A stretch of 64,000 nucleotides of DNA from positions 3,038-67,037 of the forward strand of contig JAFQTN010000007.1 of the NCBI GenBank assembly GCA_017409025.1, in the 5' to 3' direction. Positions 54,230 to 54,478 of this stretch are shown one piece after another; the first letter of the stretch is position 1; every line of letters starts with the position of its first letter. Made by a program: the position numbers and the translations under genes. The notes under the pieces are model-generated. The model saw only the letters and a list, made by a program, of their open reading frames with translations. It made no database searches and was not told where the DNA came from. The stretch is from Bacilli bacterium (GTDB lineage: Bacteria; Bacillota_I; Bacilli_A; RF39; UBA660).

Positions 54230-54478
54230 ATGGAAGTTATTTTATCAAATACCGCTTTAGCTATTGGTATAATGATAGGCTTATGTTTTTTAGGACTAGG
54301 CATTGGAGTAGGTATACTTGGAGGAAGAGTTGCTGAAGCTATTGGGAGAAATCCAGAAACTAAAAATGACGTGGTACATTCTGTAATGACAATTTTAATA
54401 ATTACAGCTGTATTTTTGTTGTTCTTATTTGCTTTTTGTTTCTTATTATTGTTCTTTAATCCGTTAGTAACATACTAG
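54230..54478 (+). CDS. atpE: F-type ATPase c-subunit-like protein lacking the ion-binding carboxylate
   Basis: GxGxGxG helix 1 and AEAIGRNPE loop; helix 2 has no Asp/Glu. Confidence 0.8.

Follow-up and report, generated by a model that had tools for sequence, protein, structure and literature searches.

An F-type subunit c without its ion-binding carboxylate, encoded in a widespread gene module of gut bacteria, suggests a rotary ATPase uncoupled from ions

Rotary ATPases are defined by the coupling of ATP to ion flow through a carboxylate on the c ring. In a 64,000-nucleotide stretch of the genome of an uncultured gut Bacilli bacterium (hereafter, the window, meaning the whole stretch analyzed), the original prediction, made from the sequence alone, singled out a gene for a subunit c from which this carboxylate had disappeared. 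The locus raises the question of whether the gene encodes a genuine subunit c and, if so, what an F-type motor could do with a ring that carries no ion. The open reading frame (ORF) consists of 82 codons and a TAG stop and is immediately preceded by an AAAGGAG ribosome-binding site (Table 1). Its 82-aa product matched the Pfam ATP-synt_C model (PF00137) over its whole length (model positions 1 to 60 of 60) with 35 bits (cut-off, 24; E = 1.7e-8). The best NCBIfam c equivalog reached 43.8 bits against a cut-off of 71, and the protein remained below the cut-off of all the c equivalogs. This product is a true homologue of the F-type subunit c.

As predicted, the GLGIGVG helix and the RNPE loop are intact. 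Helix 1 carries the GxGxGxG packing motif (G22-x-G24-x-G26-x-G28), and the loop is R40-N41-P42-E43. The prediction that the residue 18 positions past the loop proline is Ala60 and that helix 2 is devoid of acidic residues was confirmed on the ORF product. We aligned the protein with MAFFT to 13 canonical c sequences from genomes of the same class (L022 to L034). The column that holds Ala60 contained Glu in 13 of the 13 canonical sequences, in agreement with the claim that the ion-carrying Asp/Glu has been lost. The remainder of the canonical ion site is replaced as well: in this alignment, Val27 takes the place of the helix-1 Gln, Val61 with Phe62 that of the Thr/Ser following the Glu, and Phe65 that of the Tyr a turn further on.

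Table 1. Features of the subunit c locus, with positions in the window
Feature	Position	Strand	Basis or description
Promoter-like site, surface-protein genes	45937..45965	+	12/12 TTGACA-17-TATAAT, TG extension; consensus match only
p1937, giant surface protein, 1937 aa	46011..51824	+	N-terminal membrane anchor, Gly/Ser-rich linker, long repeat array; Pfam fn3 33.7 bits
p531, surface protein, 531 aa	51841..53436	+	N-terminal anchor, Gly-rich linker
p245, surface protein, 245 aa	53436..54173	+	N-terminal anchor and about 200 aa outside
Promoter-like site, ATPase operon	54163..54192	+	12/12 TTGACA-18-TATAAT, TG extension (extended -10), sigma-70-like
Subunit c homologue without ion-binding carboxylate (Ala60)	54230..54478	+	PF00137, alignment to canonical c, family-wide loss
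b254, b-delta-like peripheral-stalk protein, 254 aa	54480..55244	+	AF2 and fold matches; N-terminal membrane helix
Alpha-like subunit, 448 aa	55228..56574	+	PF00006 236.5 bits
Beta-like catalytic subunit, 451 aa	56583..57938	+	PF00006 224.2 bits
Epsilon-like subunit, 91 aa	57931..58206	+	Position and weak profile matches
m178, 5-helix membrane protein of no known family, 178 aa	58208..58744	+	No Pfam family above cut-off
Gamma-like central stalk, 254 aa	58761..59525	+	PF00231 72.2 bits, cut-off 39.9
p640, acidic, no hydrophobic segment, read as coiled-coil from sequence	59534..61456	+	ORF
p263, secreted, SipW-type signal-peptide-like N-terminus	61550..62341	+	Weak, below cut-off; module membership uncertain

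Of 13 genomes belonging to the same genus, 12 carried the c gene (identity, 95 to 99%), and the 13th is 86% complete; with 74% identity, the gene was also present in a second genus of the same family. A metagenome search covering 5.8 billion proteins returned 922 matches, of which the best 120 were inspected. The loop motif was found in 118 of these 120 homologues, with Ala (64 proteins), Ser (49), or Thr (5) at the position 18 residues further on and Asp or Glu in none; helix 2 was free of any acidic residue in 117 of the 118. Scanning one genome per species yielded 349 encoding stretches. Among the best 80 of these 349 loci, the site residue was Ser (32), Ala (23), Thr (23), or Val (2), and no locus (0 of 80) had Asp or Glu. 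A profile search of 1.84 billion representatives also revealed, at the 50% level, single-hairpin clusters whose site residue is Val, Ile, Phe, Met, Gly, or His (27 of the 150 clusters listed). Since the loss of the carboxylate is common to the whole family, chance, a sequencing error, and a single-strain mutation are all excluded. Orthologues with Glu or Asp at the site, which would have pointed to such an error or mutation, were found neither among the 80 loci nor among the 118 metagenome proteins with the loop motif.

Fused c proteins with three to five hairpins form a separate observation. They have Glu in the first hairpin only and Gln at the site in the others (E-Q-Q, E-Q-Q-Q, and E-Q-Q-Q-Q; examples are P0246, P0251, P0259, P0262, P0266, and P0270, among others), and P0286 has Gln in all three aligned hairpins. 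Fused proteins with E-Q-Q-type patterns would form rings with very few ion sites.

Comparison of the window with 10 loci of the same genus gave a dN/dS of 0.028 for c, the lowest value of the eleven cluster genes tested (pS, about 0.59). For the other ATPase parts, dN/dS ranged from 0.075 to 0.21, with alpha, beta, gamma, and epsilon at 0.07 to 0.13. In 23 diverse orthologues, the invariant positions of c were G17, G22, G28, E36, A37, G39, N41, P42, K45, L73, N77, and P78, and G24, G26, and R40 were nearly invariant. The middle of helix 2 is not where c is conserved; conservation is concentrated in three places, namely, the Gly motif, the E36-A37-x-G39-R40-N41-P42-E43-T44-K45 loop, and N77-P78 at the C-terminus. 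In canonical enzymes, the c loop is the contact with the gamma and epsilon shaft. The constraint on c has left the ion site and now falls on the packing motif and the cytoplasmic loop.

The c gene opens an operon of eight genes, in the order c, b254, alpha-like, beta-like, epsilon-like, m178, gamma-like, and p640. The alpha-like protein scored 407.9 bits with NF009884 (cut-off, 554) and possesses the P-loop GDKKTGKT and, in the arginine region, SVSRLG. It matches positions 8 to 434 of the 507 in the atpA model, its C-terminal end being about 60 to 70 residues short. The beta-like protein scored 457.1 bits with atpD (cut-off, 462.85) and contains a 17-residue stretch (17 protein letters, not shown) and EELSEED. 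In the betas of the family, the GERxxEG motif was found in 20 of 20 and Walker A in 19 of 20. We read the catalytic motifs of alpha and beta as intact. The gamma-like protein gave 45.1 bits with the NCBIfam equivalog (cut-off, 194.45); its gene lies between those for alpha and beta in most other lineages and is displaced in the lineage of the window. The epsilon-like gene always follows the beta gene. The 91-aa epsilon-like protein had no Pfam match, and a profile of 25 orthologues searched against the PDB gave two matches only, both of the epsilon type (5fl7_H, E = 0.61; 8yh8_H, E = 1.3). No Pfam or NCBIfam family matched p640 (640 aa), whose homologues were found solely in loci with the window-type gene order, that is, in the lineage of the window and close relatives.

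The second gene of the operon encodes b254, for which Pfam and NCBIfam gave no match and a sequence profile searched against PDB sequences found no delta subunit and no relevant match. The AF2 model (pLDDT, 82.5) consists of a helix (residues 2 to 73), a disordered segment (74 to 96), and a helical and small beta domain (100 to 246). Nearly all of the top ~35 Foldseek rows were F-ATPase delta/OSCP or mycobacterial b-delta proteins, at a weak best E of 0.02. Using VIA, about 120 residues of the delta part were aligned with Z values of 4 to 5.5 and an rmsd of about 5 Å; a wide VIA search was filled by coiled coils that matched the long helix, so that it did not probe the globular part. With moderate confidence, we take b254 to be a b-delta-like stator stalk in which b and delta are apparently fused and shortened.

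Pfam identified no subunit a among the ORFs of the cluster, and PF00119 had no match at E values up to 10 in the window's own genome (95.9% complete; the control was positive in 9 of 14 genomes). This genome (1.28 Mb) contains no second ATP-synt_C gene, no second ATP-synt_ab gene, and no canonical F- or V-type ATPase. Judging from its genes, the organism would be without a rotary ion pump, unless the missing 4% of the genome encodes one.

The membrane protein m178 has 364 homologues, and none of the 120 listed carried a Pfam domain. Its AF2 model (pLDDT, 87.4) shows one helix and a four-helix bundle. Comparison of the model with the PDB returned generic helical bundles only (best Foldseek E, 1.1; best VIA Z, 11.3, for the TorS sensor), and a sequence profile searched against the PDB matched one designed protein (E = 0.015). 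In an alignment of 23 sequences, m178 had no invariant column and no invariant charged residue. Subunit a has a conserved intramembrane Arg and a horizontal-helix fold; m178 is modeled as a plain bundle, although a missing fold match does not prove that the two are unrelated. A complex prediction for four copies of c and m178 (score, 0.00; mark, 0.32) was uninformative in either direction. We also considered m178 as a diverged duplicated c, resembling the V-type c'', and rejected this candidate: the proteolipid rows in Foldseek were low ranked, and the profile-profile comparison (A2 versus A1) gave a probability of 0.4%.

The original prediction held that the ring cannot couple ion flux. This claim is well supported, as the whole ion site is small or hydrophobic throughout the family, no subunit a was found, and m178 is without an invariant charge.

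Directly upstream of the c operon are the genes for p1937, p531, and p245, which are type-II-anchored surface proteins. No Pfam family matched p531 above the cut-off, and a search of the protein atlas with p245 gave no usable match. In four Lachnospiraceae-type loci, m178-like and p245-like proteins are fused into one polypeptide of 402 to 407 aa (L090:13332-14549, L056:14882-16105, L084:14970-16178, and L092:14904-16121). This fusion indicates that the two work together, and their predicted topologies are compatible. The giant of Kineothrix alysoides (L099:1691-8233) contains a collagen triple-helix repeat (PF01391, 48 bits; cut-off, 27.2; residues 268 to 324) and a Big_3_2 domain; p1937 of the window has a (Gly-Ser)n linker in the place of the collagen repeat. 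These domains hint that the Kineothrix giant may form a trimeric stalk. The dN/dS values were 0.38 for p1937 and 0.35 for p531. The surface proteins (46011-54173) and p640 evolve at the protein level about 10 times faster than c (0.35 to 0.38 versus 0.03); fast evolution is expected for exposed surface proteins pressed by hosts or phages.

Two groups of hosts carry the module. The first comprises uncultured gut Bacilli (Tenericutes / Mollicutes MAGs) and "Clostridium sp. CAG:914", and the second comprises Lachnospiraceae, among them two cultured strains, Kineothrix alysoides KNHs209 and Hominiventricola filiformis CLA-AA-H276. The commonest gene order is giant, p531-like, c, b-like, alpha, gamma, beta, epsilon-like, m178-like, p245-like, and a second giant. 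Synteny was counted in 48 loci whose flanks extend 8 kb or more upstream and 7 kb or more downstream. Alpha, beta, gamma, and epsilon were found in 47 of them, a p1937-like giant in 44, and a p531-like gene in 44; three loci (L067, L076, and L085) had neither a giant nor a p531-like neighbor. BLAST detected a homologue of p245 in 35 of the 48 loci and a homologue of m178 in 26, with positional analogues of m178 in the rest. The linkage outlasts rearrangement, the giant being downstream in G021 and p245 being upstream in the lineage of the window, and all frames are intact across dozens of species. The linkage of ATPase and surface-protein genes is strong but not universal. The gene order is different at L096, where c is directly followed by p1937-like and p531-like genes and the next 7 kb or so downstream revealed neither alpha nor beta.

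A divergent module (L038, in G049:C48, positions 5592-20000, minus strand) displays the same architecture. Its c is 32% identical and has Leu at the site, and it is accompanied by a b-like protein of 339 aa, a membrane protein of 162 aa, and surface proteins of 676 aa and over 1967 aa; the module adjoins rpsL-rpsG-fusA-tuf. BLAST comparisons of m178 and b254 with their G049 counterparts were insignificant, and these are analogues by position only.

Besides the module, a canonical F pair is present in Kineothrix, an F pair in one MAG, and both F and V pairs in Hominiventricola and in the L058 genome. The CAG:914 genome, like that of the window, has the module pair only. Because the module coexists with ordinary F- or V-ATPases, we regard it as an addition and not a replacement. 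With the atpD model, canonical betas scored 818 to 835 bits and family betas 443 to 473 bits. A beta tree was built from 38 rows with a quick IQ-TREE search and rooted on three family alphas only. In this tree, 19 of 20 family betas grouped together (SH-aLRT, 97), separate from a group that contains the canonical betas and the two F1-like types of mycoplasmas; the remaining beta, that of G049, was placed on the other side, unresolved. Given the small sampling and the root on family alphas, we claim from the tree only that the family is distinct. Rather than a peculiarity of a single F-ATPase, the genes form a distinct module that is widely distributed.

The module resembles the canonical F1Fo ATP synthase (atpBEFHAGDC) in its homologous c, alpha, beta, and gamma subunits, its epsilon-like and b-delta-like subunits, the order c-b-alpha-gamma-beta-epsilon seen in most family lineages, and its intact catalytic motifs. 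It differs in that the family c proteins lack the carboxylate, no subunit a was found, and extra membrane and surface proteins belong to the module. Moreover, every NCBIfam equivalog score of the family (c, alpha, beta, and gamma) is under the cut-off, and the betas form a separate clade. Among the duplicated proteolipids of V/A-type enzymes, a hairpin can lose its Glu with the ring still working. To our knowledge, these rings always have at least one carboxylate per fused subunit. In contrast, the c of the window is a single hairpin and has no carboxylate, and the genome contains no other c gene.

N-ATPases (atpDCQRBEFAG) retain subunit a and an ion-binding c. They resemble the module in being a second, divergent F-type operon alongside the main one, although the window proteins scored below the N-ATPase cut-offs (TIGR03322, TIGR03324, and TIGR03305), with 16.3 bits for c (cut-off, 130.85), 346.4 for alpha (cut-off, 750.5), and 414.7 for beta (cut-off, 752). 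According to a 2026 preprint on rotary-ATPase evolution, the N-ATPase b subunit carries a delta-like segment (10.64898/2026.10.01.756066).

The nearest concept is the Type 3 "F1-like X0" enzyme of mycoplasmas (MSC_0618/0619). Two papers describe it as an F1-like alpha/beta/gamma/epsilon set with a membrane sector that has no known ion path, encoded beside surface proteins and alongside a genuine F1Fo (PMC12994834; PMC3369863). One of these papers also describes it as required for the MIB-MIP antibody-cleavage system and lists seven genes for its cluster, one of which encodes a 12-helix protein and none of which encodes c or b (PMC12994834). The module shares with it the F1-like set on a membrane sector without a known ion path, the surface-protein neighbors, and the coexistence with F1Fo. 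However, the window cluster is without a 12-helix protein and has c and b-like genes instead; with the Type 3 NCBIfam models, the window beta scored 399.8 bits (cut-off, 570) and alpha 309.7 bits (cut-off, 520), whereas true members score 728 to 821 bits. The betas also form separate clades, and the module is hosted by uncultured gut Bacilli and by Lachnospiraceae, which have a cell wall, rather than by mycoplasmas.

In the Type 2 system of Mycoplasma mobile (MMOB1660/1670), the internal gliding motor, an F1-derived ATPase is thought to power the movement of giant surface proteins and is reported to form cytoplasmic chains of dimers with no ring. An F1-derived ATPase and giant surface proteins are common to both systems. 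With the Type 2 NCBIfam models, the window proteins scored 375.3 bits (cut-off, 600) and 358.2 bits (cut-off, 850), compared to 960 to 1253 bits for true members, and the clades are separate, with the Type 2 betas branching with the canonical ones. We read the family as F1-derived ATPases with a non-bioenergetic membrane sector, like the known F1-like kinds but distinct from them. The gene cluster is apparently undescribed. Full-text literature searches gave no description of it or of a carboxylate-free single-hairpin c, and the supplementary tables of the mycoplasma papers or of the 2026 preprint could list such genes. F1-like enzymes and Lachnospiraceae go unmentioned in the main text of the preprint (10.64898/2026.10.01.756066), and the accessible part of a 2025 paper on reduced gut genomes describes ordinary F0F1 only.

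What, then, could such a ring do? We lean, with moderate confidence, toward c being the ring subunit of an F-type-derived, ATP-hydrolyzing rotary machine that is uncoupled from ions and performs mechanical work on surface proteins. According to this model, an alpha3beta3 head, catalytically intact by its motifs, would hydrolyze ATP, and a gamma-epsilon-c rotor would be turned against a stator consisting of the b-delta stalk and m178/p245. The Gly-zipper packing motif of c and its invariant cytoplasmic loop, the shaft contact of canonical enzymes, are kept. The ion site on c is lost and no subunit a was found; their place is taken by m178 (fused to p245 in some lineages) and two to three further anchored surface proteins, including giants of 1700 to 2350 aa. 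The motion would do mechanical work on the surface proteins. As there would be no ion to move, the output would have to be mechanical, and m178/p245 and the anchored surface proteins are its only conserved candidates. We infer the formation and rotation of the ring, the membership of rotor and stator, and the effect on the surface proteins from these data, and the mechanical output from gene linkage only. The original prediction had suggested a passive rotor, bearing, or pore that carries torque across the membrane. This suggestion is plausible and fits the stalk, the loop, and the linkage to surface proteins; no result favors a pore over a rotor. A difficulty for the rotary proposal is to see how a smooth ring in the bilayer would do work outside the cell.

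The tight linkage to very large type-II-anchored proteins would also suit an export or assembly engine, in which an F1-like ATPase energizes the secretion, insertion, or assembly of the giants and the ring acts as a platform or conduit without torque. FliI, FliH, and FliJ, the relatives of beta, b/delta, and gamma, energize flagellar export in this manner. Consistent with such a role, alpha and beta gave 163 to 227 bits with the FliI/YscN models, which is below the cut-offs, and FliH was among the fold matches of b254 (5b0o_F, Z = 5.9). However, the subunits are far nearer to the F type (457 bits with atpD versus 227 with FliI), and the full set of gamma, epsilon-like, c, and b-delta-like subunits would be superfluous to a pure export ATPase. 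The surface proteins themselves have, by their sequences, ordinary N-terminal anchors of a type that is inserted elsewhere without a dedicated system. On balance, we find an export engine unlikely.

Alternatively, a c oligomer could tether a regulated F1-like ATPase that acts through conformational change or signaling, with no sustained rotation of the ring. No stator with a recognizable ring-facing surface was identified, and the F1-like ATPase of Mycoplasma mobile is reported to work without a ring; both points would agree with a static anchor. On the other hand, the membrane-anchored peripheral stalk has been kept. A stalk of this kind serves a purpose only where the head changes position with respect to the ring, and we therefore favor real rotation over static anchoring. 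The extreme constraint on c, loop and Gly motif included, also speaks against a mere tether, which we hold to be quite unlikely.

We consider it highly improbable that the complex still pumps ions through an unconventional site, such as one at His50/Ser51/Thr54 or at the interface with m178. His50-Ser51 is common in the family, but His50 lies 8 residues past the loop Pro, near the cytoplasmic surface, and its position is occupied by Gln, Arg, or Asn in L099, L082, L064, and L075. In addition, helix 2 was without an acidic residue in 117 of 118 metagenome homologues, the genome yielded no subunit a, and conserved charges are absent from m178. We give almost no credence to a decaying remnant of an ordinary F-ATPase in a reduced genome, which the small genome (1.28 Mb) and the lack of another F- or V-ATPase might suggest, against dN/dS values of 0.03 for c and 0.07 to 0.13 for alpha, beta, gamma, and epsilon, intact frames in dozens of species, intact catalytic motifs, and the coexistence of the module with canonical F- or V-ATPases in larger genomes.

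If the rotary machine uncoupled from ions is real, an F-type motor has been reused for mechanical work, with its rotor and stator kept and its ion path deleted, and the module supplies an intermediate that still holds c and b-delta. A bolder version, which we regard as speculative and rather doubtful, would place the N-terminal anchors of one of the giants in or on the c ring, where they would rotate together with it, so that the motor spins or winds an extracellular fiber; in Kineothrix, this giant bears a stalk of the collagen type that is presumably trimeric. This would be a third kind of ATP-powered rotary surface organelle, serving motility, adhesion control, or surface clearing in gut Firmicutes. 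Were this the case, an F-type motor would be at work in living cells purely as a mechanical device, without ion transport. The module is widespread in many gut species, strongly constrained, and present in two cultured hosts. Because annotation pipelines label its genes ATP synthase, reduced gut Bacilli may be wrongly credited with chemiosmotic ATP synthesis or a proton pump.

The flanks of the cluster contain further genes. The p263 protein scored 14.8 bits with TIGR04088 (cut-off, 19) and 19 bits with PF12389 (cut-off, 22.5). One to five tandem paralogues with a weak SipW-type or camelysin-like N-terminus flank the cluster in the window and in L074, L066, L076, L116, L078-L080, and L100. These proteins may represent an additional, lineage-specific component. 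A gene for a Bro-N domain protein (40128-41015) and one for a YhcG/DUF1016 PDDEXK nuclease (62855-63853) lie on either side of the region; Bro-N and YhcG/DUF1016 genes are frequently part of mobile elements.
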